Assembly: GCA_007128675.1 (NCBI GenBank)
Contig: SKWY01000299.1
Span: 1-34,911, forward strand
Direction: 5' to 3'
DNA: 34,911 bases
Origin: Deltaproteobacteria bacterium
GTDB taxonomy: Bacteria; Myxococcota; Myxococcia; SLRQ01
Shown: piece after piece, positions 1-18,014 of the stretch
Position numbering within the stretch: the first letter of the stretch is position 1
How the letters are laid out: every line of letters starts with the position of its first letter
The notes under the pieces: generated by a model
The model's database searches: none
What the model was told of the DNA's origin: nothing
What the model saw: the letters and a program-made list of their open reading frames with translations, nothing else
Program-made: the position numbers and the translations under genes

Positions 1-87
1 AATCTTTGATTGCGGGTCGGGCTCTCTTGGCTGCTCGAGCAGTAGGCAGGCTACTCGTGGAAAATGGCGGCCCAGGGGCTCATCCAT
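1..87 (-). CDS. Possible 5' end of imuB (Y-family-polymerase-like SOS mutagenesis protein), truncated by the window edge
   Basis: An ATG at 87-85 (minus strand) overlaps the imuA stop (ATGGATGA). The frame stays open for 29 codons to the window edge (MDEPLGRHFPRVACLLLEQPREPDPQSKI). The VACLLL segment resembles ImuB N-termini, and the position after imuA matches the known imuA-imuB-dnaE2 order. The fragment is too short to verify. Confidence 0.3.
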   Translation of the reverse strand, partial: MDEPLGRHFPRVACLLLEQPREPDPQSKI

Positions 88-955
88 GCCCATTGCCCGA
101 GAATTGGCCGAGCGCCGCCTGTTTTCTAGCCAGGGTCAGCCTTGCCTTTCTGCCCTCGCCGCCTAGACGAGATCTGATTAGCGTCGCGTCGATGGCAACC
201 CCTTGAAAGGTACGCGGCCCGAGATTTTCCATCTTCGGGGTCATGATGGCCTGGCTCGAGGCGTCGTAGCCGCTCTCTCTCGCTGGCGTCACACGAGGAC
301 CCTCGTCGCTCCAGAAGAGGCCGGTCCGCTCCAAGCGAATACATAGCGTCGCGATCCGAAAGAGAAGAGGTGGTGGGGGCGCATCCGAGAGGATGAGGCA
401 GCGGCTGGCTCCTGGTACGGAGCGCCCAAGACGGGCGGCGGCGCTCTCGCAGAGCTTATGGGGCCGGCGGCGTCCTACGGATCCCAGAGGATCGTCGCCT
501 GCGCCGAGATCCATGACGAGCAGGGATAGGGCGCCGCTTCTTAGCGTCAGGATGGCCGCGTGCAAGGCCTCTGATATGTCGCCTGGAGGAGGTCGAATCA
601 TCAGCACTCGCTGAAGGTCTAGGCCCGCCGCGGCAGCCGAAGGTGGGTGAAATGTTCCTTGCGTGTCGATCCAGGCTATGTGATTGCCGGTATTCGTAGG
701 GGTGGCCGCGATTGCCAGAGCGATGCTGGCTCGGCCGGAAGAGGGGGGGCCGCAGATGAGAGATATCCGCCCACCTGGGAGGCCGCCCCTTGGGAGTAGG
801 GAGTCGAAGCCGGCCAGCCCCGTTGGCTGGAAAGAAAGAGGGTTTGCGCCCTGGAAGGTCGCCGATGGGAAGCGGCGGCGCAGGGAGCCTTGCAGCTGCT
901 CGATCTCTTGGCGTCGATTACTCGGCGAGGACCGGTCCTTCATCATGCCGAACAT
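80..955 (-). CDS. imuA: ImuA-like RecA-fold SOS-response protein (cell division inhibitor SulA/ImuA family)
   Basis: 291-aa ORF 45 nt downstream of lexA on the same strand. It has a degenerate P-loop-like segment (GRISLICGPPSSGRASIALAIAA) and a WIDTQGTF segment typical of ImuA/RecA-like proteins. The true start could instead be the ATGATG at 946-941. Confidence 0.6.
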   Translation of the reverse strand: MFGMMKDRSSPSNRRQEIEQLQGSLRRRFPSATFQGANPLSFQPTGLAGFDSLLPRGGLPGGRISLICGPPSSGRASIALAIAATPTNTGNHIAWIDTQGTFHPPSAAAAGLDLQRVLMIRPPPGDISEALHAAILTLRSGALSLLVMDLGAGDDPLGSVGRRRPHKLCESAAARLGRSVPGASRCLILSDAPPPPLLFRIATLCIRLERTGLFWSDEGPRVTPARESGYDASSQAIMTPKMENLGPRTFQGVAIDATLIRSRLGGEGRKARLTLARKQAALGQFSGNGHG

Positions 956-964
956 TATACGAAC
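950..964 (-). promoter_or_regulatory. GAAC-N7-GAAC direct repeat (GTTC-N7-GTTC on the coding strand) overlapping the annotated imuA start; candidate LexA box
   Basis: The plus strand reads GAACATTATACGAAC. The minus strand reads GTTCGTATAATGTTC and contains a perfect TATAAT hexamer. The pattern equals the alphaproteobacterial-type SOS box consensus GTTC-N7-GTTC. It lies in the short lexA-imuA junction. Confidence 0.35.
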
Positions 965-1000
965 GGGGTCCGACAGGAAAGGCTCGATGTCCCCCGGCCG

Positions 1001-1612
1001 CTAGTCGAAGCGTCTCAAGACCCCCACCACCTTGCCTTGAACTTTCACCGACTCCGGCCAGGTCGGAGCCATCGTGGGGTTTGCGGGCTGCAGACGAACG
1101 CGTCCCCGGTCTCGGAATACCTTTTTCAAGGTGGCCGAGCCGTCGGGTAGAAGGGCGACTGCAATCGCGCCGTTTTCCACTCGAGACTGCTCCTTGACGA
1201 TGACCAGATCACCGTCGAGGATATGGCTGTCGATCATAGAGTTTCCTTGAACCTTTAGGGCATAAGTGCCTTCAGGGGCAAGAGAACTTGGCAGAAATAG
1301 GGGTTCTTCTGGAAGCTCGATTGCCTCGATGGGCCCCCCGGCGGCTATTGATCCCCGGACTGGAATCTCGTTCATCTCCCGGTCCTTGAAGCTGCCTTCC
1401 AGCTCGATCAACCCAAGGCCGTGGGCCGAGCCGTCCCTTTCCAAGATGCCTTTGGCGCAAAGAGCATTTATATGCTGCTGGATCGTGGAGGGGGCCCTGC
1501 CCAGCCGGCTAGCAATCTCTCTTACAGAGGGCATTCTCCCCTTGCTGGACGCAAAGCCGCGGATGAACTCGAGAAGCTCGAGCTGGCGAGCGGAAAGGGG
1601 CCTCATCTTCAC
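1001..1612 (-). CDS. lexA: LexA transcriptional repressor (S24 self-cleaving peptidase)
   Basis: 203 aa. N-terminal winged HTH (MPSVREIASRLG..STIQQHINAL). AAGG segment at the expected Ala-Gly cleavage site. Catalytic Ser in QGNSM and Lys in TLKKV. GTG start at 1612, alternative ATG at 1606. Confidence 0.95.
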   Translation of the reverse strand: MKMRPLSARQLELLEFIRGFASSKGRMPSVREIASRLGRAPSTIQQHINALCAKGILERDGSAHGLGLIELEGSFKDREMNEIPVRGSIAAGGPIEAIELPEEPLFLPSSLAPEGTYALKVQGNSMIDSHILDGDLVIVKEQSRVENGAIAVALLPDGSATLKKVFRDRGRVRLQPANPTMAPTWPESVKVQGKVVGVLRRFD

Positions 1613-1872: not shown

Positions 1873-3654
1873 GTGGTGGCCGAACCCAAGCTCATCAGCG
1901 ATCTGAAGCGCACTCATTCTTGCGGTAGCCTGCGTGCGGGGGACATTGGCGAAAAGGTGGTCCTTTTCGGCTGGGTCCATGGGCGCCGCGATCTTGGCGG
2001 CTGCGTGTTCGTGGATCTTAGGGATCGACATGGTCTTACGCAGGTAGTCTTCGATCCGACGGTCGAGGCCACGGCCCACGGCATGGCGAGCGAGCTGCGC
2101 GGTGAGTACGTGGTCGGGATCCAGGGCACGGTGCGTTCTCGTGGGCACCAAATCAACGAGAGCATGCCCACCGGTGAGATCGAGGTCGCGGCCAGCCGGG
2201 TGGAGATATTCAGCAAGGCCGATACTCCGCCTTTTCACATAGAGGACGAGATCGACACGGGCGAGCAGCTTCTGCTTCGTTATCGCTACCTGGATCTTCG
2301 CCGTCGCCCTCTCCAGAACATCCTCGTGCGTCGCAGCCGCATGGCCCAAGCCACTCGCACCTTTCTCGATTCAGAAGGCTTCTTGGAGCTGGAGACGCCC
2401 TTTCTGACCAAGAGTACCCCCGAGGGAGCTCGTGACTATCTGGTCCCTTCGCGGGTGAACCCGGGCAAGTGGTTTGCCCTCCCGCAGTCGCCCCAGCTCT
2501 TCAAGCAGCTCTTCATGGTGGCCGGTTTCGATCGCTACTTCCAGATCGTGAAGTGCTTTCGTGACGAGGATCTACGCGCTGATCGGCAGCCGGAGTTCAC
2601 CCAGATCGATCTCGAGATGTCTTTCGTCTGCGAGGAAGACGTCCTTTCCTTGGTCGAAGGCATGATGAGCGCGATACTCGAGGCGGACGGTAAGGAAGCC
2701 GTCCCCAGGCCGTTTCCTCGATTGACCTTCGATGAAGCAATGAGCCGGTTCGGCTCGGATAAGCCGGATGTCCGTTTTGGGCTGGAGCTGGTGGACGTCT
2801 CCGATATCGCTCGGAAGAGCGGTTTTCGAGTCTTCGCCGACGCCGTGGACAAAGGCGGAATCGTCTCTGCGATAAACGCAAAGGGCGCGGATCTCTCTCG
2901 CTCCAAGATCGACGGGCTGGCCGAGGAGGTGGCGATCCACGGGGCCAAGGGCCTTGCTTGGGCGAAGGTGAAACCGGAGGGTTGGCAGGGTCCCGTGGCG
3001 AAGGTGGTGAGCGAGCAGGCAAGGGAACAGATCGTGGAGAGGCTCGGTGCCGTCCCGGGCGACGTGCTCTTCTTCGTAGCCGACAGAAGGGAGGTCGTCT
3101 TGGCTTCCCTTGGTCACCTGCGCCTCGTTTTGGGCGAGATGTTGAGCCTCATTCCCAAGGATGTCCTCTCGTTCGTATGGGTGACCGACTTCCCCTTGCT
3201 CGACTACGACGAGGAGCAGGGAAGGTGGGTGGCGCTGCATCATCCTTTCACCTCTCCCAGGGAGGAGGATATTCCCAGGCTCGAGAAGGATCCCGGATCA
3301 GTCCGTGCAAGAGCCTACGATCTCGCCCTCAACGGCAACGAGATCGGGGGCGGGTCGATTCGAATCCACGATAGAAGCGTCCAGGAGATGGTATTTCGAA
3401 CTTTGGGACTCTCCGAGGAAGAGCAGCAGGCGAAGTTCGGCTTCCTGTTGGATGCATTCAGGTTTGGCGCACCGCCACATGGCGGCATAGCCATGGGCTT
3501 CGATCGGATCGTGATGCTACTGACCGGGGCCAGCTCAATCCGCGACACCATCCCATTTCCCAAGACCCTAAGGGCCGTGGACGTCATGACCGACGCGCCC
3601 AGTGAGGTCGATTCGAGGCAGCTAGAGGAGCTTCACGTCAAGAACGTCCTCTGA
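1873..3654 (+). CDS. aspS: Aspartyl-tRNA synthetase (class IIb)
   Basis: 593 aa. Class II motifs are present (FQIVKCFRDEDLRADRQPEFTQIDLEMSF, GGGSIRIHD, GIAMGFDRIVMLL). GTG start is preceded by GGAGGAGG. Confidence 0.97.
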   Translation: MVAEPKLISDLKRTHSCGSLRAGDIGEKVVLFGWVHGRRDLGGCVFVDLRDRHGLTQVVFDPTVEATAHGMASELRGEYVVGIQGTVRSRGHQINESMPTGEIEVAASRVEIFSKADTPPFHIEDEIDTGEQLLLRYRYLDLRRRPLQNILVRRSRMAQATRTFLDSEGFLELETPFLTKSTPEGARDYLVPSRVNPGKWFALPQSPQLFKQLFMVAGFDRYFQIVKCFRDEDLRADRQPEFTQIDLEMSFVCEEDVLSLVEGMMSAILEADGKEAVPRPFPRLTFDEAMSRFGSDKPDVRFGLELVDVSDIARKSGFRVFADAVDKGGIVSAINAKGADLSRSKIDGLAEEVAIHGAKGLAWAKVKPEGWQGPVAKVVSEQAREQIVERLGAVPGDVLFFVADRREVVLASLGHLRLVLGEMLSLIPKDVLSFVWVTDFPLLDYDEEQGRWVALHHPFTSPREEDIPRLEKDPGSVRARAYDLALNGNEIGGGSIRIHDRSVQEMVFRTLGLSEEEQQAKFGFLLDAFRFGAPPHGGIAMGFDRIVMLLTGASSIRDTIPFPKTLRAVDVMTDAPSEVDSRQLEELHVKNVL

Positions 3655-3665
3655 AAGGAGGGGCC

Positions 3666-5330
3666 GTGTTCGACCTCATCGTAATCGGTGGAGGCGTGAA
3701 CGGCAGCGGCATCGCAAGAGACGCTGCGATGCGCGGCTTGTCGGTCGTGCTATTGGAGCGGGAGGATTTTGGGGTGGGGGCCAGCGGCAATAGCTCCTGG
3801 ATGGTGCATGGCGGTGTGCGCTACCTGTTCTCCGATCCGACCGTCACTCGGGACTCCTGCCGGGACTCCGGGTACATCCAGAAGATCGCATCGCACCTAA
3901 TCTTCCGGATTCCCTTCTTGATGCCCACGGTCGGTGGCAGGCCCGGCGGGCATCTCATGGATCGTGGCTATTTGTACGGCGTGGAGAGCTTCCTTGGGGT
4001 CTACGATCGATACCAGCCTCTGAAGCACGGCAAGCAGTCGGTACGCCTCTCCGCCAAGGAGGCCTATGACATCGAGCCTGGGCTACGAAGGGACATCGTG
4101 GGGGCGGCGACGCTGGACGAGTACGGCATAGACGCGTTCAGGCTTTGCGTGCTCAATGGTCTGGCCGCTTGTGAGAAGGGAGCCGATATTCGCACTTGGA
4201 CCGAGGTCGAGAGACTACTCCGTGATGGGAGCGGTAGGGTGCGGGGCGTGCTTGCCCGAGACAGGCTGACCGGAGACGTGGAGGAGATAGAAGGGAAGGT
4301 CACCGTGAATGCCGCGGGGGCTTGGTCGCCTCGCCTCGCGGGCCGAAACGGCCTTTCCGTGAAGATGAGGCCGGGCAAGGGGATCCACGTCGTTCTCGAC
4401 AGGAAGATCTCGAACTATGGCATCATCTCCCAAGCGGTCGATGGCAGGGATGTGTTCATCATCCCCCTCGAGACATCCTCGGTCATAGGAACGACGGACG
4501 ATGACTTCTATGGCGATCCGGGTCAGATCGAAGTGACCAACGACGAGGTCTCCTACCTTTTGGAGGCAATCGAGCACCTGCTCCCCGAAATAAGGAAGGC
4601 CAGGGTCATAAGGACCTACGCCGGTGTGAGGCCTACTCTCTACGAGTACGGCAGAAACGAAAGCGATCTCTCTCGGGATCACGCGATAGTCGATCACGCG
4701 GCGGAGGGGGCGCCGGGAATGCTGTCCATGGTCGGCGGCAAGCTCGCGGCATATCGAATGATGAGCGAGGAAGCCGTCGATTTGGTCGAGGACGCGCTTG
4801 GTCGTCCGCGCTCGAAATGCAGGACGGCGCTGGAGCCCCTGCCTGGAGGGGCTCCTCCACTACCCGACCCGGCTCTCTTGTCCGAGAAGTACGAGACGCC
4901 TCCCTGGGAGACGGAGCGGCTCGTGCATCGTCAAGGTAGCAGAGCCGAGGATGTGCTCGTCCTAACCAAGGATGAACCTGCTCTTCGGGCGCCGGTCTGT
5001 CAGTGTGAGGGGGTACTCGGCGCGGAGCTGGTTTGGTGCATGCGCAACGAGCACGTACGGCGTCTTTCGGATCTGATGCGCCGCTGCCGGCTCGGCCATG
5101 GACCCTGTGGGGGGACCCGCTGCGCCAGGACGGCCGCGACTATCTTCGCAAGGGAGCGAGGCCTCGATGCCGAGGCGGCCATGGCGGAACTCGTGGATTT
5201 CTTGGAAGGCCTCTGGCGCTTTCGCCGGCCGGCCCTCGATGGGCACCAGCTGGCACAGGAGGAGCTTGCTCGGGGCATTTGGCTGTCGTCCGCTGGGCTT
5301 GACGAGCCCGCGCGGGGAGGGTGCAGATGA
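3666..5330 (+). CDS. glpA: Anaerobic-type FAD-dependent glycerol-3-phosphate dehydrogenase, subunit A
   Basis: 554 aa. N-terminal dinucleotide fold (DLIVIGGGVNGSGIARDAAMRGL). C-terminal BFD-like 2Fe-2S Cys cluster (CQCEGV...GPCGGTRC), as in E. coli GlpA. RBS AAGGAGGGG. Starts only 11 nt after aspS. Confidence 0.85.
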   Translation: MFDLIVIGGGVNGSGIARDAAMRGLSVVLLEREDFGVGASGNSSWMVHGGVRYLFSDPTVTRDSCRDSGYIQKIASHLIFRIPFLMPTVGGRPGGHLMDRGYLYGVESFLGVYDRYQPLKHGKQSVRLSAKEAYDIEPGLRRDIVGAATLDEYGIDAFRLCVLNGLAACEKGADIRTWTEVERLLRDGSGRVRGVLARDRLTGDVEEIEGKVTVNAAGAWSPRLAGRNGLSVKMRPGKGIHVVLDRKISNYGIISQAVDGRDVFIIPLETSSVIGTTDDDFYGDPGQIEVTNDEVSYLLEAIEHLLPEIRKARVIRTYAGVRPTLYEYGRNESDLSRDHAIVDHAAEGAPGMLSMVGGKLAAYRMMSEEAVDLVEDALGRPRSKCRTALEPLPGGAPPLPDPALLSEKYETPPWETERLVHRQGSRAEDVLVLTKDEPALRAPVCQCEGVLGAELVWCMRNEHVRRLSDLMRRCRLGHGPCGGTRCARTAATIFARERGLDAEAAMAELVDFLEGLWRFRRPALDGHQLAQEELARGIWLSSAGLDEPARGGCR

Positions 5331-6598
5331 TGACTACCTCGTCCGATGTTCTCGTGGTTGGAGGAGGTATGGCCGGGGCCGTGGCGGCCCTAGCCGCGGC
5401 GACGCGAGGCCGCTCTGTCACGCTCCTTAGAAAGGCCCCCGGAGCCACGGCTCTTGCCAGCGGCGCCATCGATCTCGCGCCCATGGGGGAGCAAAGGCAT
5501 GTGACGAGTGTTGCCGTTGCTTCGGCGACTGCCGGCTGGCTCGAGGCGGTCGCTTCCAGATCTCCCTCCCATCCTTACTGCGCCGTCGGTCCCCGCGGGC
5601 TTGCCCTGATTGGTGACGCGGCGGACATGATTCTGGGTCGCCTGGCCGACGCCGGGCTTCCCCATGCCCCCTTTGATGCAAAGGGGCGAGGACATCTCGT
5701 GGTCGACCTGACAGGAAAGGTCAGAAGAGTTGCCAGCGCCCAGGCATCACAAAAGCTGGAGGAAACGGAGCCGGGGAAGCGACGAATAGGCGTAGTCCGC
5801 TTCCGCCGCCACCTTTCCCTCGATACGGGACTCACTCTCGCCGGACTGCGCGCGGTATTTGCCAACGTGGTACCCGTGGAGGTGGACTGGCCCGATGAGG
5901 CCGACGGAGCCTTCCTGTTGCCCGTGGAGATTGGTAGAAGGCTCGATGATCCTCGTGGGCGATCCGCGCTCTTCAAGCTTCTTCGCACGGCTGTTGCTGG
6001 GAAGAGGCTCACTCATCTAGTTCTTCCTCCCATCGCCGGCTTGGAGCACGTCAGCGAGGTCATGCGCGCCGTCTCGGATGTGACGGGCACCAAGGCCGTC
6101 GAGACTCTTGGCGGAGAGGCCTCCTTGCCTGGCCACAGGCTAGATAGGGCTCTTAGCCGCGCTCTCGAGGCCGCGGGCGTTCGTTTGGAGACGAATGCCC
6201 ACGGGGCATCCGATGGCAAGCTGAAGAGATTCCCCGGCGCCATCGTGCTCGCTTCGGGCCGCTTCATCGGCGGCGGCCTCGAGCGAAGAGATCGGCTTCG
6301 AGAGACCATCTTCGATTTGCCCGTCGACGATGGAGCACGCCCGATCAAGGACGAGCCCCTCGATGTCTTGACCTCCAGAAGGGGTCTTGGTGCGCACCGG
6401 GTTTTTCGAGCGGGCATTCGGATCGACGAGAACCTTCGGCCTCTCGATGTGGGTGGCAAGCCTTTTCGGGAGGGCTTGTTCGCGGCGGGCTCGGTGATAG
6501 GAGGTCATGATCCGCAAGCGGACTTTTCGGGCATGGGAGTGGCGATTCTCACGGGTTATCTCGCCGGGCTGCGCGCGGCGGAGTGGAAGAGGTCATGA
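5321..6598 (+). CDS. glpB: Anaerobic glycerol-3-phosphate dehydrogenase, subunit B
   Basis: 425 aa. N-terminus (DVLVVGGGMAGAVAALAAATRGRSVTLL...GATALASGAIDL) parallels E. coli GlpB. Probable start is the ATG at 5327, forming an ATGA overlap with the glpA stop. Confidence 0.7.
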   Translation: MQMMTTSSDVLVVGGGMAGAVAALAAATRGRSVTLLRKAPGATALASGAIDLAPMGEQRHVTSVAVASATAGWLEAVASRSPSHPYCAVGPRGLALIGDAADMILGRLADAGLPHAPFDAKGRGHLVVDLTGKVRRVASAQASQKLEETEPGKRRIGVVRFRRHLSLDTGLTLAGLRAVFANVVPVEVDWPDEADGAFLLPVEIGRRLDDPRGRSALFKLLRTAVAGKRLTHLVLPPIAGLEHVSEVMRAVSDVTGTKAVETLGGEASLPGHRLDRALSRALEAAGVRLETNAHGASDGKLKRFPGAIVLASGRFIGGGLERRDRLRETIFDLPVDDGARPIKDEPLDVLTSRRGLGAHRVFRAGIRIDENLRPLDVGGKPFREGLFAAGSVIGGHDPQADFSGMGVAILTGYLAGLRAAEWKRS

Positions 6599-7137
6599 AG
6601 CAGCTAATAAGGCGTTTTCGGGCTCTGGCGCTCCTGGGTATCCAGGCGTTGATCTTGCAGCCAATCAAGAGGCTGCGGAACCTCAAGGTCTCGGGAGAGG
6701 CTCGTTTCCTGGAAGCCTACACACCCGATCGTCTACTGCCTCTGACCGTCGAGGAGAGAAGGAGGCGCGATCGATTCAATGCCTGTATCAACTGCGGCCT
6801 ATGCGATGTGTCATGCGACCTATTGGCATCGGTTCGACGAAGCAGGCTGCCCTCCTTGTCTTCCGTTGCTGTTGGCTATGGCCGCTCGATGACCGAGTAC
6901 CCCTTCGCGCGGCTATCCCTCGAAGAGCTTTCGTCCTGCGACGATTGTCTCCGTTGTGAGGCTGCATGCCCACGTGGGGTTCCGCTCAAGGAGATGATAG
7001 ATGATCTTTTGGCCCATGCCACACGACTGGATAAGGCGGGCTTCGGGATGAAGCGTCTTTCCGCGGGCAGTGGCGGGGCGCTGGAGCTGCCTGAGAAGAG
7101 GCCTCTTGCGGCCGCTGGCATGGAGAAGTCCGAATGA
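6595..7137 (+). CDS. Small 2x[4Fe-4S] ferredoxin-domain protein with a hydrophobic N-terminal helix
   Basis: Two Cys motifs are present: CINCGLCDVSC and CDDCLRCEAACP. The N-terminal segment LIRRFRALALLGIQALILQPI is hydrophobic. The ATG at 6595 overlaps the glpB stop (ATGA). An alternative GTG lies at 6583. Confidence 0.6.
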   Translation: MKQLIRRFRALALLGIQALILQPIKRLRNLKVSGEARFLEAYTPDRLLPLTVEERRRRDRFNACINCGLCDVSCDLLASVRRSRLPSLSSVAVGYGRSMTEYPFARLSLEELSSCDDCLRCEAACPRGVPLKEMIDDLLAHATRLDKAGFGMKRLSAGSGGALELPEKRPLAAAGMEKSE

Positions 7138-8771
7138 GCGCCGTGGTCGAGAAGCTACACTCACGGATCGCCGAGGTGCTAGGTCGCCGTTTCGTGACCG
7201 ATGACGCCGAGCGCCTCGAGGCATACTCCAGGGATGCTTGGTCTCGGGTGTTTCTGGCTGCCCGGGAAGGTTGTTCGACCCCCTCTCCCGATCTCGTTGC
7301 CTGGCCGGCCGATGTCGAGCAGGTGGCGGCCATCATGGGTCTTGCCCGCCAGGCTGGGTGCCCCGTCGTCCCATACGGTGCCGGCAGCGGAGTGTGCGGC
7401 GGCACATATCTCTTGGATGGGGGGCTCATCATCGACCTGAAGCGAATCGATCATGTGGGAACGGTGGACCGGCAGGATCGGCTGGTGGAGGTCGGAGCTG
7501 GAGCCCTTGGAGAGCATTTCGAGCGACGTCTGGCGCTCCAGGGCTTCACCTGTGGACACTTTCCCTCCTCCATGTACTGCTCCACGGTAGGTGGCTGGCT
7601 GGCCGCTCGGAGTGCCGGCCAGATGAGCTCTCGTTACGGCAAGATCGAGGATATGGTCAGCGGCCTCACCTTCGTCGATGGTACGGCTCGAATACGGCGG
7701 CTAGGCGCCAGGCCGCGAGCCGGGGCCGGTCCGGATCTCATTCAAACCGTCGTGGGAAGTGAGGGAACTCTAGGCGCCGTGACCGATGCGGTCTTGCGGG
7801 TGCATAGGGCGCCGGCTGTACGAAGAATGCGTGGTGTTCTGATGCCATCGCTGGAATCCGGCGTCGAGGCGGTTCGTAAGATGTTTCAGGCTGGGCATCG
7901 TCCCGCCGTCGTGCGCCTCTACGATCCGCTGGACACGTTGGTCAACAAGGGCAAGGGCACGGATACGGGCGGCGGTGTCGTCTCCTTTCTTCGGCGGGGG
8001 CTCGGCAAGGCGCTGCCGAAGAGCGGTAAAGGTAACAAGAGGCGAACTCGGTCGGCAATCGTCGATGCCGTTTTGACTCGACCGAGGTTCTTCGGAGAGC
8101 TTCTCGATCGCGCGGCGGGCTCGTGCATGCTGGTTCTGGGTTCCGAGGGTCAAGATGCTAGACTGGTGGACTACGAAGCAAGAGAGATACTGAGTATCTC
8201 TCTTCGTCTAGGAGGCCTAGATCTCGGCGAGGCTCCCGGTGAGCACTGGCTCTCTCATCGCTACTCCGTGAGCTTCAAGCTCACCCCCGCCCTCGATATG
8301 GGACTTTTCGTGGACACCCTGGAAACCGCTGCCACCTGGGGGCGCGTCCTTGGGCTCTATCATGCCGTGCGTCAGGCGGTGCGCGAGCACGGCTTCGTCA
8401 TGGCTCATTTCTCTCACGCTTACGAGGAGGGGTGCTCGATCTACTTCACGCTGGCCGGTAGCGCGCCGGATCTGCAAGGAAGTGAGGAGGCCTACGATCG
8501 CTTGTGGCGGGCTGCCCTCGATGCCGTGGTGGCTGGAGGGGGCACAATCAGTCACCATCACGGCGTCGGCATGAGCAAGCAGGCTTTCATGCACAAGGAG
8601 CATGGAGAAGGAGGGATGGTGCTTCTGCGAGCGCTGAAAAAGGCCCTCGATCCCGACGGCATCATGAACCCGGGCAAGCTGGGTCTGGGCGGTGGACCAG
8701 AGCTTCCGGGAGCTCCCTGGAGGGTGACCCGAGCCGGCAGCGGCCGTGGCGGCTGGAAGGTGGCGGCATGA
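7134..8771 (+). CDS. FAD-linked oxidase (VAO/PCMH family), alkyl-DHAP-synthase-like large subunit
   Basis: 545 aa. FAD-binding segments (VVPYGAGSGVCGG, GSEGTLGAVTDAVLRV). The C-terminal ISHHHGVGMSK plus DPDGIMNPGKL match the AGPS HHH loop rather than the GEHGIG of GlcD/D-lactate dehydrogenases. ATGA overlap with the upstream gene. Confidence 0.8.
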   Translation: MSAVVEKLHSRIAEVLGRRFVTDDAERLEAYSRDAWSRVFLAAREGCSTPSPDLVAWPADVEQVAAIMGLARQAGCPVVPYGAGSGVCGGTYLLDGGLIIDLKRIDHVGTVDRQDRLVEVGAGALGEHFERRLALQGFTCGHFPSSMYCSTVGGWLAARSAGQMSSRYGKIEDMVSGLTFVDGTARIRRLGARPRAGAGPDLIQTVVGSEGTLGAVTDAVLRVHRAPAVRRMRGVLMPSLESGVEAVRKMFQAGHRPAVVRLYDPLDTLVNKGKGTDTGGGVVSFLRRGLGKALPKSGKGNKRRTRSAIVDAVLTRPRFFGELLDRAAGSCMLVLGSEGQDARLVDYEAREILSISLRLGGLDLGEAPGEHWLSHRYSVSFKLTPALDMGLFVDTLETAATWGRVLGLYHAVRQAVREHGFVMAHFSHAYEEGCSIYFTLAGSAPDLQGSEEAYDRLWRAALDAVVAGGGTISHHHGVGMSKQAFMHKEHGEGGMVLLRALKKALDPDGIMNPGKLGLGGGPELPGAPWRVTRAGSGRGGWKVAA

Positions 8772-10000
8772 GTCTCATCCAAGACCTCGAAGGAGTGGGG
8801 CTCGGGCTGTCGAAGGGCCAAGACGGGGCCATCAAGGCATACCCCCTCGATGCCGAAGAAGTGCAGGCTCTCGTGCGAACATGCAGGAGGGCCAAGGAGC
8901 ATGTCCTCTTGGAGATAGACGGCTTGCCTCCTACACCTCTTTGGGCGCCTCAAGAGGGCATGGCCTTCTCGTCCGCCGACGAAGAGACCCGAGTATGCGT
9001 CGATCTAGGCAAGATGAAGGCCGTTGCCCTGGATCGCGAAAGCCATCTCGTCAATGCCTTTGCCGGCATTTCCGTAAGTGATCTGGAGGAATACGTCTCG
9101 GAGCACGGCTTCACGTTGGGGCTCCAGGATCCTCCGGCTCTTGCCGTCGGTGCCTGGCTTGCCTTGAATGAGCCTGGGCCGGGATCGCGGCTGGCGTTTC
9201 CTGGATGGAGTCCCGTGGCCGCGGTGGAAGCGGTCCTTTTGGAAGGGAGCCTGATTCGAACCTCTCGTGTCCCCCGAAGCGCCACCGGACCGGACCCAAA
9301 GGCCCTGCTGATCGGGGGGAAGGGGCGTTTGGGAGTGATTACTCGCGTTACGCTAAGAATGTACCCGGCGGCCCGGGGCAAGAGAATCGTGATGGCCTTT
9401 GCCGACGCCGCCGACGCTGTGGGCGCGGTCATCGAAGCGCTTGGCCAGGACCTCGTTCCCGATGCCTTTGGGCTGCTCGATGGCGGGATTTCCGAGAGCG
9501 TGCTTGCCTGGGAGGTTCGAGGCGATCCGGGGCGGGTAGCTCGAGTGTCTCTGGCAATCGACGAGGTGGCGGCCTTGAACGGGGGGCGCCGCTTGGCCTC
9601 CATCGTGCGGGAGCCGGGGGCCCAAGGCGAGATGCTCAAAGAGCCTGAAGTGCCCGGCCTTGGCGATCTAGGGGCTGCCGGCCCGGTCGAGGTGCGGGCC
9701 GCCGCCGCGCGAAGGGCAGGGCGTAGGCCCGAGCCTTCGGTAGCGATAGGGTTTGGAGCCAGATGGTCCAGGATCGTCCTCGTTAGGCGGGCGCTCATAA
9801 ACGAACTGGGAGGGAGCGTAAGGCTCCACCTCGAGAAGGCTCTGCCGGAGGGGGGCATGGGGATAGCTTGTGTCGATTCCGAGAACTCTCCAAGGGCGCG
9901 TGACATCATAAGGCAGGCAGGTGGTTTTCCCGTGGGTGACGAAGAGTCCGAGAGCTGGATAGAAGGCGTCGCCGGCACCCTTCTAGGAGAGGCCCCATGA
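8768..10000 (+). CDS. Divergent FAD-binding PCMH-domain protein (GlcE-like second subunit)
   Basis: The ATG at 8768 overlaps the upstream stop (ATGA). The segment GPDPKALLIGGKGRLGVITRVTLRMYP matches the FAD_binding_4 core. The N-terminal FAD motif looks degenerate. The 8504 start in the ORF track is an out-of-frame overlap artefact. Confidence 0.6.
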   Translation: MSLIQDLEGVGLGLSKGQDGAIKAYPLDAEEVQALVRTCRRAKEHVLLEIDGLPPTPLWAPQEGMAFSSADEETRVCVDLGKMKAVALDRESHLVNAFAGISVSDLEEYVSEHGFTLGLQDPPALAVGAWLALNEPGPGSRLAFPGWSPVAAVEAVLLEGSLIRTSRVPRSATGPDPKALLIGGKGRLGVITRVTLRMYPAARGKRIVMAFADAADAVGAVIEALGQDLVPDAFGLLDGGISESVLAWEVRGDPGRVARVSLAIDEVAALNGGRRLASIVREPGAQGEMLKEPEVPGLGDLGAAGPVEVRAAAARRAGRRPEPSVAIGFGARWSRIVLVRRALINELGGSVRLHLEKALPEGGMGIACVDSENSPRARDIIRQAGGFPVGDEESESWIEGVAGTLLGEAP

Positions 10001-11337
10001 CGGCCAAGCAGAACCCGCGCGCCATGGACGAGAAGGGGGCCGATTCGGGGCCCACAGGTCTTCTCGGTCTCCACGATAAGGCACAGCGATACTGCAACCT
10101 TTGCCCCCGTCTGTGCCACCACAGCTGTCCTGTCTCGAACGCCGAACGAGACGAGACCGTCACTCCAGGACACAAGAACGCTTTGGCAGGCAGGGTGGCC
10201 CGTGCCATCAGACCCCTGGATGAAGAAGCGGCCGACATCTTCTACAAATGCGTCAACTGTGGCCTGTGCACGACGGTCTGCCAGCACGAAAACGATGTCT
10301 CCGAGAGCCTGCTCTCGGCTCGTGCTGTGGCTGTTCGAGCAGGGCTCGAGGCGCCGGCGCTGGCCGAGCTTCGAAGGAGTTTCCATAGTTTCGGAAACGC
10401 TTGGCTCGAGGATCTTCGGCCCAGGCTTCGGGATTTGGTCCCAAAGGATCTTCGGGTAGGTGATGGCGCCGCTAATCATGCCGGGCTTGGTGGTCGAGAA
10501 AGAGGCGCGGGGCGTTCGAGAAGGAAGCTTCGGGTGTACTGGCCCGGCTGCGCGGCGGTTGCGCGCCGGCCTGATCTGGTCTCCTTGACCCTCGAGGTCC
10601 TCGGCCGGCTTGGTGAGGGGGACGTCAAGGTCTATTGCGGCGATGAGGCGCAATGCTGCGGCTATCCTCTGCTCGCTGCCGGACAGCACGACGCATTCGT
10701 CGATCAAGCTAGGAAGGCCTCTCGTGCTTTGTCGGGCGCCGATGTCATCTTCACTGCCTCGCCAGAGTGCGCGTGGACCTTTGCCGTTGCGTGGCCGCGC
10801 CGCGCCGGCTTGGAGCCCCCAGCGAGGCACGTCGGCCATGTGGTCGATCTGCTCTTGCCCGCCGTCGAGCGTGCTCCGATGCAGAGCCCCCTCGACTTGG
10901 ATGTCGTCTATCACGACCCCTGCTACCTGGGGCGCTTTCTTGGCCGCTTCGATGAGCCTCGAAGCATTTTGAAGCGCCTGCTCCAGCGGCCGCCGGTGGA
11001 AGCCGGATCCTGGATTCGAGACGAGGGGTACTGCTGCGGTGCTGGCGGGGGGCTCGAAATTACGAGCCCCGACACCTCCCTTTCGATAGCTCGTGCCCGC
11101 GCCGGTCATCTTCTTGGGGTGACGACGGGGCCTCCCGGGGAGCCGGCGAGCCAGGCAGAGTTAGCTCGGGCTTCCAAGAATAGGCATATAGCCACCGCTT
11201 GCACCCGGTGCTCGATTCAGTTTGGTGAAGTCGGCGCCAGCGCCGTGGATATCGTGGAGCTTCTGGCTCGTTACCTTGGGATCGAAGGCGCCGCCAATCA
11301 TCCACGGCTAGAGGACGAGAGAGGAGGAGGCCTGTGA
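9997..11337 (+). CDS. Fe-S oxidoreductase with two 4Fe-4S motifs and two CCG domains (GlcF/GlpC/HdrD-like)
   Basis: Cys motifs CNLCPRLCHHSCP and CVNCGLCTTVCQ, followed by CCG motifs CCGYPL and YCCGAGGG. ATGA overlap with the upstream gene. Confidence 0.8.
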   Translation: MTAKQNPRAMDEKGADSGPTGLLGLHDKAQRYCNLCPRLCHHSCPVSNAERDETVTPGHKNALAGRVARAIRPLDEEAADIFYKCVNCGLCTTVCQHENDVSESLLSARAVAVRAGLEAPALAELRRSFHSFGNAWLEDLRPRLRDLVPKDLRVGDGAANHAGLGGRERGAGRSRRKLRVYWPGCAAVARRPDLVSLTLEVLGRLGEGDVKVYCGDEAQCCGYPLLAAGQHDAFVDQARKASRALSGADVIFTASPECAWTFAVAWPRRAGLEPPARHVGHVVDLLLPAVERAPMQSPLDLDVVYHDPCYLGRFLGRFDEPRSILKRLLQRPPVEAGSWIRDEGYCCGAGGGLEITSPDTSLSIARARAGHLLGVTTGPPGEPASQAELARASKNRHIATACTRCSIQFGEVGASAVDIVELLARYLGIEGAANHPRLEDERGGGL

Positions 11338-12266
11338 AGAAGGACGCCTATCGTACCTTCCTCATCGTCAATCCCCGCTCCGGCGGTGGGTTCGCGGGAC
11401 GTCGTTTCGAACGCATCGCCGAACACGTAGAGGCAGCCGTAGGCGACTTTGGGCATGCGCTCACTTCGGGTCCCGGCGATGCCACGAGGATAGCTCGAGA
11501 AGCCATCGAGAAGGGCTTCGAGATGATCGTTGCCGTCGGTGGGGATGGCACTTTCAACGAGGTAGTCAACGGGTTCTTCGAGAAAGGCGAGCCGCTCAAT
11601 CCGGAGGCTGTGTTCGGAGTCATTCCCCGTGGAACCGGCGGAGACCTGCGGCGCACTCTTGGAGTGCCAAAGGATCTTCGCCAGGCCTCCGCTCTCTTGA
11701 GCGGACGAAGGGTCAAGACAGTGGACGTTGGTCACGTTTCCTTCGTTTCCCACGATGGAAAGGAGGCGGAGCGGGTCTTCATCAATATCGCTTCCTTTGG
11801 GGTCAGCGGTCTGGTCGTCGATCGCGTCAACGGCGCCAGCAAGATCCTGGGCGGCAAGGCTTCCTTCATGATCGGATCGGTGAAGGCCTTGCTCCAGTAC
11901 AGGGATCAAGAAGTCACCGTCACCATGGACGATGGCCGGAGGGTGACCGGGCCCGTCACTTGTGTTGCCGTCTGTAATGGCCAGTACTTCGGCGGTGGCA
12001 TGAGAGTGGCTCCCTCGGCCAGGATGGACGACGGCCTCTTCGACGTCACCACCTGGGTCGGCTTCTCCCTCAAGGACTTCGCCGTGAGCTCGCGCATGCT
12101 ATACGACGGCAGTCACATCGAGGATCCGAGAACGCGAGCCGGGCACGCCAAAGTGCTTCGCGCCGATAGCGAGGAGAAGGTGCTCTTGGACATAGACGGG
12201 GAGCAGCCAGGCCATCTGCCCGTGACGATTCGTCTCTTACCCTCTACTCTCAAACTGAAGTGCTGA
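11334..12266 (+). CDS. Diacylglycerol-kinase-family lipid kinase (YegS/BmrU/Rv2252 type)
   Basis: 310 aa. DAGK catalytic domain motifs are present (FLIVNPRSGGG, VAVGGDGTFNEVVNG, VIPRGTGGDL). GTGA overlap with the upstream gene. Confidence 0.85.
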   Translation: MKKDAYRTFLIVNPRSGGGFAGRRFERIAEHVEAAVGDFGHALTSGPGDATRIAREAIEKGFEMIVAVGGDGTFNEVVNGFFEKGEPLNPEAVFGVIPRGTGGDLRRTLGVPKDLRQASALLSGRRVKTVDVGHVSFVSHDGKEAERVFINIASFGVSGLVVDRVNGASKILGGKASFMIGSVKALLQYRDQEVTVTMDDGRRVTGPVTCVAVCNGQYFGGGMRVAPSARMDDGLFDVTTWVGFSLKDFAVSSRMLYDGSHIEDPRTRAGHAKVLRADSEEKVLLDIDGEQPGHLPVTIRLLPSTLKLKC

Positions 12267-12287
12267 CCGTGGTGCTGCCTTCCGCGG

Positions 12288-12959
12288 CTAGCTCGTGGCC
12301 TGAAGGAAGGCAGCTGCGGCGGCTTGGGGAGAGTCGGATGCGATCACGGCCCTTATGAAGGCCACGCCGGCTGCCCCGGCTTCCAGCATTTGGCGGGCGA
12401 GCCTAGGGCAGGTCACTCCGCCGAGGGCGTAGACGGGAAACCTCTGTCCCTCCCTCGTGCGGATACTGGTCGCGGCCTCCAGCGCCTTGATTCCGACCGG
12501 GGGGCCGAACCTGCGCTTGCTGGGAGTATCAAGAACGGGCCCAAAGGTGACATAGCTGGCACCGGCCTCGGCGGCCGTTCGAACCTCCTCGAGGCTATGG
12601 GTCGAGACCCCAATCGTTGCCGATTCTCCCAGGAGAGTGCGGGCTATGTCGGGCGGTAGGCCCGAGGAAGGGAGGTGGACGCCATCGGTCTCAAGGGCCA
12701 GAGCGATGTCGACCCGGTCGTTCACGAGAACTGGTGCTCCCGCGGTTTTGGCAACCTTTCCCACACGGGCTACCAGATCGTGAAGCTGACGTGCCGACAG
12801 ATCCTTTTCCCGTACCATTACGGCCATCTGGCCCGAAGATGCGCCCAAGACGGCCTGCCGTATCGCCTCCACGAGGGCGCGGGTTCGATCGCCGTCGTGA
12901 GCCCGCAGGGCATTGCGGTCGGTAATCAGCAGGAGCCTGAAGCCTGGGGGGGTCGGCAC
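12288..12959 (-). CDS. thiE: Thiamine-phosphate synthase
   Basis: 223 aa. Motifs LLLITDR, VNDRVDIALA, DGVHL, GVSTHS and YALGGV are present. GTG start lies 6 nt after the thiG stop. Confidence 0.9.
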   Translation of the reverse strand: MPTPPGFRLLLITDRNALRAHDGDRTRALVEAIRQAVLGASSGQMAVMVREKDLSARQLHDLVARVGKVAKTAGAPVLVNDRVDIALALETDGVHLPSSGLPPDIARTLLGESATIGVSTHSLEEVRTAAEAGASYVTFGPVLDTPSKRRFGPPVGIKALEAATSIRTREGQRFPVYALGGVTCPRLARQMLEAGAAGVAFIRAVIASDSPQAAAAAFLQATS

Positions 12960-12965
12960 TCTGAC

Positions 12966-13772
12966 TCAAACTCCAATGCGCCCTTCGATTGGGCTAGAGG
13001 CGGTGGCGTAGAGCTTCATAGGTATCCTGCCCGACAAGTAAGCCTCTCGGCCGGCCTCGACGGCGAGTCGCATGGCCCTGGCCATGCGCACGGGATCGTC
13101 CGCTCCCGCAATGGCAGTGTTCATGAGCACCGCATCGCATCCCAGCTCCATGGCCACCGCGGCATCGGAGGCCGTTCCCACGCCGGCATCCACGATGACC
13201 GGCACTGTTGCCTGCTCCAGAATGATGCGAAGATTGTAGGGGTTGCGGATGCCGAGCCCCGATCCTATCGGAGCGGCCAGCGGCATGACGGCATGACAGC
13301 CGATATCCTGGAGCTGCCGGCATACGATGGGATCATCGGTGCAGTAAGGCAGAACGGTGAACCCTTCCTTCAGAAGGATCTCGGCGGCCTGGAGGGTGAG
13401 CTGATTGTCCGGAAAGAGCGTTTGATCATCGCCAATCACCTCGAGCTTGACGAGGTCACCCATGGATGCCTCGCGGGCGAGCCTGGCGGTTCGAACCGCT
13501 TCATCCACGGTGAAGCAGGCAGCGGTGTTTGGCAGAAGGGTCATGTTCGAAGGCAACCAGTTCAAAAGGTTCTCATCACCCTGTGCCGAAAGATCGATTC
13601 GTCTGACCGCGACGGTAACCATGTCGGCTCCCGATGCCTCCATGGCATCGCGCATCGTTCGAAAATCCTTGTACTTGCCGGTGCCGACGATAAGGCGGCT
13701 GTTGATTGTGTGGGCCCCTACCCGTAGGGCCCTTTCATTGGGGTTGGTACCGCTATCGAAAGGCATCTTCAT
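12966..13772 (-). CDS. thiG: Thiazole synthase
   Basis: 268 aa from MKMPFDSG. Typical ThiG core ([43 protein letters not shown]). The ATG overlaps the thiS stop (ATGA). The longer 406-aa ORF is an upstream extension through thiS in another frame. Confidence 0.95.
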
Positions 13773-13969
13773 CCTCCACCGATGAAGGAGACGATCTCTA
13801 TCGTGTCTCCTGGCTCGACCGGCGTTTTGTCGTGGGCTGTTTTCGGGACTATGGTGCGGTTCTTTTCCACTGCCACGCGGCTGCTGCGAACGTCTAGATG
13901 AGTGAGCAGATCGGAGATCGTAAGGCCCGCGGGTATTGAGCGGGGCTCCCCATTTATTCTGACATCCAT
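13769..13969 (-). CDS. thiS: Sulfur-carrier protein ThiS
   Basis: 66 aa from MDVRINGE, ending in the ubiquitin-like ...FIGGG C-terminus. An in-frame upstream extension to 14077 is possible but atypical. Confidence 0.85.
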
Positions 13970-14097
13970 TGATTGATTGGCATCGGCCGCCGGGGACCTC
14001 GTCTCTCGATCCGAGGGAGGGGTTCCAGTGGCCATCGAATCTGTCTGAACCTGGTTGCTCGTGCGATGTATGGTCATCTTCTGTAAGCTCGAAATGT

Positions 14098-15435
14098 TCA
14101 GAGGGGAAGGTCGAGGTCTTTGGACATGGCCTCTTCGATCTCTTCCACGGTAATCGGCAAGCCGGCCGAGAGCACCTCATGACCATCGGATGTGACGAGC
14201 ACGTCGTCCTCGATTCGAATGCCTATGCCTCGAAGATCCGCCGGCACGGTCTCATCATCCTTGGGTAGATAGATGCCCGGCTCCACCGTCAGCGCCATCC
14301 CCGGCTCTAGCGGGCGATAAACCTTCTCTTTCTCCAGGTAACGCCCGACGTCATGTACGTCCATGCCTAGCCAGTGGCCGGTGCGATGCATGTAGTAGGG
14401 TTTGTAGGCTTCCTTCTCGATCAGCTCCTCGATGTCGCCATCCAGAACGGCCAAGGATACAAGTCCCTCGGTGAGGCTCCTTACGGCGGCCACGTGAGGT
14501 GCGTCGCATGGTGCCTTCGGCCGGATCGCGTCTACAGCTTTTCTGTGGGCCGCAAGCACGACCTCGTAGACATCCTTCTGGCGAGGCGTGAAGCGACCGG
14601 ATATGGGCATCGTCCTCGTGATGTCTCCGCTGTATCCTTGCACGAGGGCGCCTGCGTCTACGAGTAGCAGCTCACCCTCTCGAAGGGTGGAGCCGCTGTC
14701 CGTGTAATGAAGAATGCAAGCGTTGCTTCCCGAAGCCGCGACGGTCTCATAACTAACTCCCTCGGCTCCGTGTCGTCTGAATACGTACTCGAGGACCGCT
14801 GCAACGTCTCTTTCCAATACCCCTTCGCGGACGAAATGCATCACCGCGAGGTGGCCCTGGCAGGTCACCTGCACAGCTCGCCGCAAACACTCGACCTCCT
14901 GGGGGGATTTGATTAGCCGGTGCTCGTGCAAGACCGTCGCCAAATCGATGGTGGCGTAGGGCACCCGCACTCCGTCACGGGTTCCCATCCGCAGACTACG
15001 GAGCACCGAGTCTATGGAACGATCGAGATCGGGGCGTCGGCCAGAGAAGTAGTAGAGGGCATCGTAGCCTCGCAATAGCTCGGGCAGAGCGGGCTCCAGC
15101 TCCTGAATCGTCTTGGCTTCATCAGCTCCGAAGACTGTCTTGGCCTCGTCGGTGCCGTGGCGGCGGCCCGTCCAAGTCTCGGCCTCCGGGTTTCGGGGGA
15201 GAACGAACAAGGTGAAGGGGTGCTCTTGCCCGGGCCTTAGGACGGCTACGGCCTGGGGCTCCGGAAAACCGGTCAGGTAACGAAAGTCGGCGTCCTGATG
15301 GAAAGGATAATCCACATCATTGCTTCGTCGCACGAGTGTAGCGGCGGGCACGATTGCCATGCCTCGTCCGTGTTTCGTGTCAGCGATGGCCTCGAGCAAG
15401 CGCTCGCGCCGTCGGCGATGAACATCCTTCGCCAT
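14098..15435 (-). CDS. pepP: Xaa-Pro aminopeptidase (M24B)
   Basis: 445 aa. Metal-ligand motifs are present ([35 protein letters not shown]). Confidence 0.9.
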
Positions 15436-17980: not shown

Positions 17981-18014
17981 GCTACATTCACTCGTTCACC
18001 GATGGAGGATTGAA

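Follow-up and report, generated by a model that had tools for sequence, protein, structure and literature searches.

A conserved seven-gene operon of a Myxococcota contig combines GlpAB-like proteins with an AGPS-family flavoprotein, a CCG iron-sulfur protein, and a diacylglycerol-kinase-fold kinase

We analyzed a 34,911-nt stretch of DNA, referred to here as the window (positions 1 to 34,911 of the forward strand of contig SKWY01000299.1, assembly GCA_007128675.1, Deltaproteobacteria bacterium; Myxococcota). At 3666-12266 on the + strand, the window carries seven intact, in-frame open reading frames (ORFs) that form one translationally coupled, conserved operon. The genes encode GlpA-like and GlpB-like subunits of a glycerol-3-phosphate (G3P) dehydrogenase, a ferredoxin, a flavoprotein of the AGPS family (alpha), a second flavoprotein (beta), an iron-sulfur (Fe-S) protein with CCG domains (gamma), and a kinase of the diacylglycerol (DAG) kinase fold (Table 1). 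We favor, with about as much belief as doubt, the explanation that this coupled operon encodes a respiratory-type dehydrogenase/kinase module for glycerol-phosphate-type substrates with a shared Fe-S exit. All of the parts come from known families. Their combination, in which a GlcDEF-like Fe-S complex has the active site of AGPS, a bare ferredoxin takes the place of GlpC beside GlpAB, and a DAG-kinase-fold kinase is coupled to these enzymes, is not described in the literature searched, where we also found no published characterization of the alpha-beta-gamma-kinase module.

The operon and its conservation

All six internal junctions of the operon are 4-nt start/stop overlaps (ATGA at 5327, 6595, 7134, 8768, and 9997; GTGA at 11334), and an 11-nt gap separates the end of aspS (3654) from the first operon start (3666). 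This is the layout that a first-pass annotation of the DNA had described, and Pfam and NCBIfam profile searches agreed with its domain calls for the seven products. A purine-rich, Shine-Dalgarno-like run lies 5′ of every operon start; for the overlapped starts, it lies inside the preceding gene. One 4-nt overlap means little, because this genome has many of them: in the window, about 3 in a dozen of the other same-strand junctions show one (18896, 22615, and 23079). The chain of six is notable because it is conserved in homologous loci. All six junctions are overlapped in L001 and L004, whose proteins are ~60% identical to those of the window, as are most junctions in the other seven-gene loci (46-60% identity).

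Table 1. Coordinates of the operon genes and of the features that border them in the window
Feature	Position	Strand	Evidence
aspS (aspartate--tRNA ligase)	1873..3654	+	NF001750, 834 bits (cutoff 443)
GlpA-like FAD glycerol-3-phosphate dehydrogenase subunit	3666..5330	+	Pfam DAO 3.6e-46, DAO_C 5.7e-14, Fer2_BFD 1.8e-4
GlpB-like flavoprotein subunit	5327..6598	+	NF003723 GlpB 2e-61, 208 bits (below cutoff); FAD_binding_2 8.7e-22
2x[4Fe-4S] ferredoxin, 180 aa	6595..7137	+	two CxxCxxCxxxC motifs, C64-C74 and C115-C125
alpha, AGPS-family PCMH flavoprotein	7134..8771	+	Pfam FAD_binding_4 3.2e-34, FAD-oxidase_C 4.3e-42
beta, degenerate alpha paralogue in GlcE-like position	8768..10000	+	FAD_binding_4 alone, 8.4e-13
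gamma, Fe-S subunit (GlcF/GlpC/HdrD-like)	9997..11337	+	CCG 5e-19 (two copies), Fer4_8 2.4e-8; two 4Fe-4S motifs by Cys pattern
YegS/Rv2252/BmrU-family (DAG-kinase fold) kinase	11334..12266	+	DAGK_cat 1.2e-28, YegS_C 3.6e-31
stable hairpin directly 3′ of last stop	12262..12323	+	-38.9 kcal/mol, z = -2.72; core stem 12274-12283 paired with 12305-12314

The gene order glpA-glpB-ferredoxin-alpha-beta-gamma-kinase was found in eight other loci (L001, L004, L052, L058, L062, L075, L077, and L083), all of them from Myxococcota or "deltaproteobacterial" metagenome-assembled genomes (MAGs). The arrangement is thus not confined to this genome, a point on which the first-pass interpretation had depended. 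Alpha, beta, gamma, and kinase also form a four-gene core that is found without GlpAB in L002, L003, L051, and L053; in L084 and L086, also without GlpAB, the core is broken up by unrelated genes. The evolutionary core is the four-gene module, to which GlpAB was added in the lineage of the window. In two unrelated loci (L084:6042-6938 and L085:5992-6885), alpha-beta is directly preceded by a divergently oriented gene of the 3-hydroxyacyl-CoA dehydrogenase family, a possible link to fatty-acid metabolism. In L086 (6552-9406), the ferredoxin homologue overlaps by 4 nt the gene for an 801-aa alpha-type protein with a C-terminal region of ~290 aa to which no assignment could be made, and CCG and kinase genes are nearby.

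The gene upstream, aspS, may be cotranscribed with the operon, and a promoter-like site lies 5′ of it at 1764-1792. It also precedes the module in L001, L002, L004, L062, L077, and L083 and lies a few kilobases off in L003 and L051; this adjacency may reflect plain synteny or cotranscription with a housekeeping tRNA ligase. Inside the operon, a scan for promoters and terminators gave nothing above chance: the 13 terminator-like sites (7.9 ± 3.1 in shuffled sequences) were all weak, and none stood out. The hairpin directly 3′ of the last stop codon, which lies between convergent genes (thiE, on the - strand, ends at 12288), probably marks the operon end. An Rfam scan of the window returned no matches. 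Horizontal acquisition of the operon was considered and rejected, as the G+C content at third codon positions of its genes (0.65-0.74) is the same as that of neighboring genes. An integral membrane anchor encoded inside the operon was likewise dropped from consideration, since transmembrane segment prediction found none in any of the seven proteins.

The AGPS-like subunit, its partners, and its relatives

Alpha, presumed to be the catalytic subunit, was compared with sequences of known structure. It matched AGPS at 1.4e-62 (2uuu) and 1.2e-54 (4bby) and mouse LDHD at 3.4e-35. In the alignment, R261, S427, Y437, and H474-476 of alpha correspond to R419, T568, Y578, and H615-617 of AGPS, with the histidines in the motif SHHHGVG. 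Roles for Arg419, Tyr578, and His615-617 (guinea-pig numbering) were reportedly worked out by Nenci et al. in 2012. This R/S/Y/HHH set was invariant in 60 of 60 full-length AGPS-like relatives. GlcD and D-lactate dehydrogenase have an ExHG-type metal site at the position of the AGPS HHH loop. The glycolate oxidase models scored well below their cutoffs (GlcD TIGR00387, 162 bits versus 567.9; GlcE PRK11282, 51 versus 284, a match that fell on alpha rather than on beta). A Foldseek search with the AlphaFold2 model of P0056, a homologue in which alpha and beta are fused, returned AGPS as the best match (about 2e-28) and LDHD as the next (about 1e-23). Judged by sequence and predicted fold, alpha groups with AGPS and not with the glycolate/D-lactate oxidases, in agreement with the first-pass call that it was AGPS-like.

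With AGPS (EC 2.5.1.26; 2uuu, 4bby; MXAN_1676), alpha has in common the PCMH FAD domain, the cap domain, the Arg, Tyr, and HHH residues, and Ser/Thr at position 568. The two differ in several respects. AGPS is a homodimer, whereas alpha is paired with, or fused to, a degenerate paralogue, and alpha has a dedicated Fer4+CCG subunit. Alpha also lacks the N-terminal region of AGPS (roughly 90-150 residues), because the alignment begins at alpha residue 38-40, which corresponds to AGPS residue 193 (guinea pig) or 126 (Dictyostelium). A basic insertion of ~60 aa is found in alpha in addition (residues 268-335, window 7935-8138), with 14 Lys/Arg versus 4 Asp/Glu in 68 residues. Insertions of this kind (40-65 residues) are specific to alphas linked to a CCG gene and absent from GlpD-linked forms, and the equivalent region of the AlphaFold2 model of the fused homologue has a predicted local distance difference test (pLDDT) score of <50 (about residues 263-303). 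The insertion may be a docking or membrane-binding segment. Gene context differs as well. MXAN_1676, a genetically validated AGPS, lies in a three-gene operon with a fusion of fatty acyl-CoA reductase (FAR) to GNPAT and an NAD-dependent epimerase-family gene (bioRxiv 10.1101/2025.10.10.681575), whereas the operon of alpha has GlpAB and a kinase.

Beta had been described in the first-pass annotation as a GlcE-type second flavoprotein. It occupies a GlcE-like position and has an FAD_binding_4 domain, but the orthology does not hold: when aligned to alpha, beta had neither the FAD P-loop (GxGSGxxGG) nor the Tyr, and nothing of the HHH loop. Beta is a degenerate paralogue of alpha and no GlcE orthologue, and it is probably noncatalytic. 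In many protein clusters from independent sources, alpha and beta are fused into proteins of ~940 aa, a fusion being counted where one open frame spans both. Single open frames were verified in L003, L024, L051, and L053; apparent fusions in L062, L075, and L077 proved to be beta/alpha cross-match artifacts and were discarded. Because the two are fused into one protein in relatives, pairing of alpha with beta is established. The AlphaFold2 model of fusion P0056, computed from a 32-sequence alignment (mean pLDDT, 82.9; predicted template modeling score, 0.86), indicates a defined alpha-beta arrangement.

Gamma passes no equivalog model (GlcF PRK11274, 36.7 bits versus 333), and no PDB relative of gamma was found by sequence. 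It is the sole CCG protein of the operon, is encoded three genes 3′ of the ferredoxin, and travels with the AGPS-like pair. The trio of alpha, beta, and gamma follows the same three-subunit logic as GlcDEF, with a catalytic PCMH protein, a second PCMH-like protein, and a 2x4Fe-4S/2xCCG protein. It differs from GlcDEF in that no GlcD, GlcE, or GlcF cutoff is reached, in its AGPS-type active site, and in the derivation of beta from alpha and not from GlcE.

The first two genes resemble glpA and glpB of GlpABC. The architecture, a DAO+DAO_C+BFD GlpA next to a GlpB, is present, with equivalog scores below the cutoffs (GlpA TIGR03377, 369 bits versus 552.8; GlpB, 107 versus 174), and Cys445, 447, 474, 481, and 486 of the BFD-type [2Fe-2S] region at the C terminus of the GlpA-like protein are all in place. 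As in GlpABC, the GlpA-like and GlpB-like genes adjoin and overlap, and a third gene follows that encodes a protein similar to the N terminus of GlpC. Here, however, the adjoining gene lacks the part that would encode the CCG half of GlpC. The ferredoxin aligns to positions 5-82 of GlpC (PRK11168), the ferredoxin half of that protein, and has an amphipathic N terminus but no CCG domains. A full-length GlpC (Fer4 plus two CCG) encoded by the third gene was absent from the window and from all eight homologous loci, which have a ferredoxin of the 180-aa type instead. Across the nine loci with GlpAB, the ferredoxin is present in every one and a second CCG gene in none. A rule that the ferredoxin occurs if and only if GlpAB does was tried and failed, as L086 has the ferredoxin without GlpAB. 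In a survey of bacterial glpA genes, glpA consistently co-occurred with glpB and glpC (PMC11962113); because of this association, a GlpAB pair with only the ferredoxin half of GlpC represents a departure from the known pattern.

The last gene encodes a kinase that passes the family model TIGR00147 (158.2 bits versus a cutoff of 118.65) and falls below the equivalogs DgkB (NF009874, 146 versus 385) and YegS (TIGR03702, 104 versus 387). It shares the DAGK_cat and YegS_C domains with the soluble lipid kinases DgkB, YegS, and Rv2252. It differs from them in that no equivalog is passed and in that its subfamily is found fused to GlpD and perhaps, in L003, to CCG. The GlpD fusion is P0282, an 881-aa protein (L087:7001-11521, also L088 and L089) in which a GlpD-type G3P dehydrogenase is joined to a YegS/Rv2252-family kinase; its kinase part belongs to the same subfamily as that of the window and is among the closest kinase relatives. 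The gene after P0282 encodes a 434-aa protein whose best match is glycerol-1-phosphate dehydrogenase (NF002022, 170 bits, below cutoff). A gene for a xylose-isomerase-like TIM-barrel protein precedes the fusion.

AGPS-like proteins are numerous outside the module. Among 8,000 scored candidates, 4,674 proteins matched alpha at E<=1e-20, and 7,637 matched the AGPS-like relative of an Actinomycetes-labelled MAG at E<=1e-30. At ~55 loci a shorter AGPS-like gene directly adjoins a glpD/glpA-like gene, mostly downstream of the latter; these loci come from Acidimicrobiales, other Actinomycetota, Binatia, Myxococcales, Acidobacteriota, and one Mixta. The matches listed in a homologue search from the L007 AGPS-like protein were Acidimicrobiales-type MAG proteins. 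In a census of neighboring genes, the commonest gene downstream of the GlpD-linked class encodes an FGGY kinase (19 loci), for which the best model is the glycerol kinase GlpK at 340-440 bits, below the cutoffs of 498-590. Triads of glpD-like, AGPS-like, and GlpK-like genes occur in L007, L009-L049, and others (e.g., L009:8103-12773 and L021:8160-12572) from Acidimicrobiales, other Actinomycetota, and Binatia. The AGPS-like proteins of these triads have ~450-500 aa and keep all of the AGPS catalytic residues. The same census gave no enrichment of acyltransferases or fatty-acyl reductases near AGPS-like relatives. In four further loci (L050, L066, L080, and L082; Actinomycetota and other MAGs), an AGPS-like and a glpD-like gene stand together with a DAG-kinase-fold kinase. 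Because these loci repeat the same classes, the constant theme of the wider family is a G3P dehydrogenase, an AGPS-like flavoprotein, and a kinase, which may be GlpK-like or of the DAG-kinase fold.

One locus extends this theme to a MAG labelled Thermoproteota (L005:3933-12262), where a gene of the AGPS-like family and a second CCG gene stand downstream of glpK-glpA-glpB-glpC. We had not expected a glycerol operon labelled archaeal to encode an active site of the AGPS type. In a neighbor-joining tree, which is crude and has no outgroup, the CCG-linked alphas, those of the window and of this locus included, fell into one clade and the GlpD-linked forms into others.

The first-pass annotation had pointed to a looser juxtaposition of the same functional classes in mycobacteria, and published annotations of Mycobacterium tuberculosis agree, with glpD1 at Rv2249c, flavoproteins at Rv2250A and Rv2251, and a DAG kinase at Rv2252 (PMC4866775, PMC6689984, PMC3229680). 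There too a G3P dehydrogenase, one or more flavoproteins, and a YegS/Rv2252-family kinase stand side by side. The mycobacterial locus differs from the window in having GlpD and not GlpAB, in a looser, divergent layout, and in that no CCG or ferredoxin gene is reported for it.

Proposed function and alternatives

In the explanation we favor, the seven products would assemble into a flavo-iron-sulfur complex, soluble or peripheral, with substrates of the glycerol-phosphate type. Alpha (AGPS-type, catalytic), beta (partner), and gamma (electron transfer) would form a GlcDEF-like trimer, in which electrons would pass between the flavin of alpha, gamma, and the quinone pool. GlpAB most likely uses the ferredoxin and then gamma because it has no GlpC of its own, and gamma would be a shared exit to the quinone pool. 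Alpha would carry out the net dehydrogenation or processing of a dihydroxyacetone phosphate (DHAP)-type or glycerol-phosphate-type compound, for instance a glycerol phosphate substituted at sn-1 or the opposite stereoisomer of glycerol phosphate, and would not be a redox-neutral ether-lipid synthase of the classical kind. Candidate substrates are lysophosphatidate or alkyl-glycerol-phosphate, which interconvert with acyl-DHAP and alkyl-DHAP, and sn-glycerol-1-phosphate. The kinase could supply the phosphorylated substrate from a glycerol-backbone alcohol.

The first-pass annotation had offered two interpretations, two dehydrogenases that share one Fe-S exit or a dedicated ether-lipid module. 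The shared exit is the better-supported half: it fits the gene content, in which there is no full GlpC and one CCG protein goes with the AGPS-like pair. The ether-lipid half is the weaker one. A net redox role for alpha is favored over AGPS-type exchange because the AGPS reaction needs no electron-transfer partner, yet alpha has a dedicated Fe-S subunit. It is favored also because the AGPS-like family sits in glycerol-catabolic operons, one of them archaeal-labelled, because no fatty-alcohol or acyl-DHAP supply genes accompany the AGPS-like genes, and because the AGPS N-terminal region is missing from alpha.

These observations bear directly on ether-lipid biosynthesis as an alternative, which we consider unlikely. 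Under that alternative, GlpAB would produce DHAP, an acyltransferase encoded elsewhere would convert it to acyl-DHAP, and alpha would be a true AGPS that makes alkyl-DHAP; the Fe-S subunit would keep the flavin oxidized or reduce alkyl-DHAP, and the kinase would recycle alkyl- or acylglycerols. In its favor, every AGPS catalytic residue is conserved in alpha, AGPS structures are the closest solved ones, the kinase passes a lipid-kinase family model, and a PlsB-type acyltransferase gene adjoins the core in L002. Myxococcota are known to make ether lipids, and distant agps homologues have been read in the literature as pointing to a further ether-lipid pathway (PMC13159169). Nevertheless, the proven myxobacterial AGPS, MXAN_1676, belongs to a different operon, one with FAR-GNPAT, whereas genes for a fatty acyl-CoA reductase or a DHAP acyltransferase are neither present in the window nor enriched near relatives of alpha. 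A redox-neutral AGPS reaction would have no need of the Fe-S partner, alpha is without the 90-150 N-terminal residues, and homologues with the same active-site residues reside in glpK/glpD operons, including the one of the archaeal-labelled MAG.

Archaeal lipids are built on sn-glycerol-1-phosphate, which is also set free from phosphatidylglycerol (PG) head groups. Salvage during PG turnover would make alpha-beta-gamma a quinone-linked sn-glycerol-1-phosphate dehydrogenase, leave sn-glycerol-3-phosphate to GlpAB, and assign to the kinase the recycling of the diacylglycerol freed by the reactions that yield sn-glycerol-1-phosphate. Such a scheme would explain the joint linkage to G3P dehydrogenases, a DAG-kinase-family enzyme, and an archaeal-labelled glycerol operon; the Fe-S exit fits a respiratory dehydrogenase, and the gene adjoining the GlpD::kinase fusion resembles a glycerol-1-phosphate dehydrogenase, though below cutoff. 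We regard it as distinctly unlikely. It is purely inferential, simple hydride transfer has no obvious need of intact AGPS acid/base residues, and no link to glycerol-1-phosphate is known for the GlpK-like kinases of the Actinomycetota-type operons. Least probable is an ordinary GlcDEF-type glycolate or D-lactate oxidase that stands between glpAB and the kinase gene by chance and whose role might be, for instance, to dispose of the D-lactate that arises from DHAP by way of methylglyoxal. Two PCMH proteins with a CCG protein, weak matches to the GlcD, GlcE, and GlcF models, and LDHD as the second-best structural match are in keeping with such an oxidase. Equivalog scores far below cutoff, the AGPS-type SHHHGVG loop, and a linkage to kinases and G3P dehydrogenases that holds across phyla and through gene fusions make it very improbable.

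Several points weigh against the respiratory module that we favor. Its archaeal-labelled example, L005, is a single MAG contig, for which misbinning is possible, and the tree that groups the alpha of L005 with that of the window is of limited quality, as noted above. The ferredoxin of L086, a locus without GlpAB, means that the ferredoxin may belong to the alpha-beta-gamma complex and not to GlpAB. A CCG::kinase fusion in L003 (10843-12897, single frame) was judged unreliable as a functional link; it may be an assembly artifact because the same nanopore MAG is also frameshifted inside ccg, and no second such fusion was found among 120 CCG relatives or 150 kinase representatives. Classical acyl/alkyl exchange could still be the reaction of alpha because its AGPS catalytic residues are fully intact. 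Finally, the module as a whole may act on a lipid, since lipid substrates are what gave the kinase family its name.

A broader claim can be put forward tentatively, and we consider it unlikely as a whole: AGPS-family proteins outside FAR/GNPAT operons might be no ether-lipid synthases and might instead constitute a new class of respiratory dehydrogenases for the glycerol backbone. The class would take in alpha, thousands of Actinomycetota proteins annotated as "alkyl-DHAP synthase," and probably the putatively AGPS-like Rv2251, with sn-glycerol-1-phosphate, lysophosphatidate, or alkyl-glycerol-phosphate as substrates. In Myxococcota, the enzyme and GlpAB would both discharge into one CCG exit, and the DAG-kinase-fold kinase would feed the enzyme. 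If this is so and the substrate is an sn-1-substituted glycerol phosphate, the enzymes would make or cleave ether and ester bonds independently of oxygen via the DHAP level. Members of the AGPS-like family are routinely auto-annotated as ether-lipid synthases; should the family serve glycerol-phosphate catabolism or respiration, ether-lipid potential is being over-called from genomes and metagenomes. It would then also be possible to test an unassigned step in the glycerol or lipid-backbone metabolism of bacteria, mycobacteria (Rv2249c-Rv2252) among them, and perhaps of archaea.

Other genes of the window

Downstream of the operon by 4.5-6.5 kb, at 16697-18899, lie two genes for phospholipid head-group enzymes: a PLD-type (cardiolipin-synthase-like) gene on the - strand and, on the + strand, a HAD phosphatase gene with a weak match to phosphatidylglycerophosphate phosphatase. 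At the other end of the window (80-1612, - strand), lexA (LexA_DNA_bind plus Peptidase_S24) adjoins a gene for a 291-aa protein that matches the RecA domain in part (profile positions 33-140 of 262); on the basis of this match, the protein is a short RecA-like ATPase and not a full RecA. Between the operon and the PLD-type gene (12966-15435, - strand), the longest ThiG ORF comprises 406 aa, with the ThiG domain confined to residues 156-399, and shares 89 nt with the aminopeptidase P gene (14098-15435). Probably the true ThiG start lies further downstream, or the protein has an N-terminal extension.

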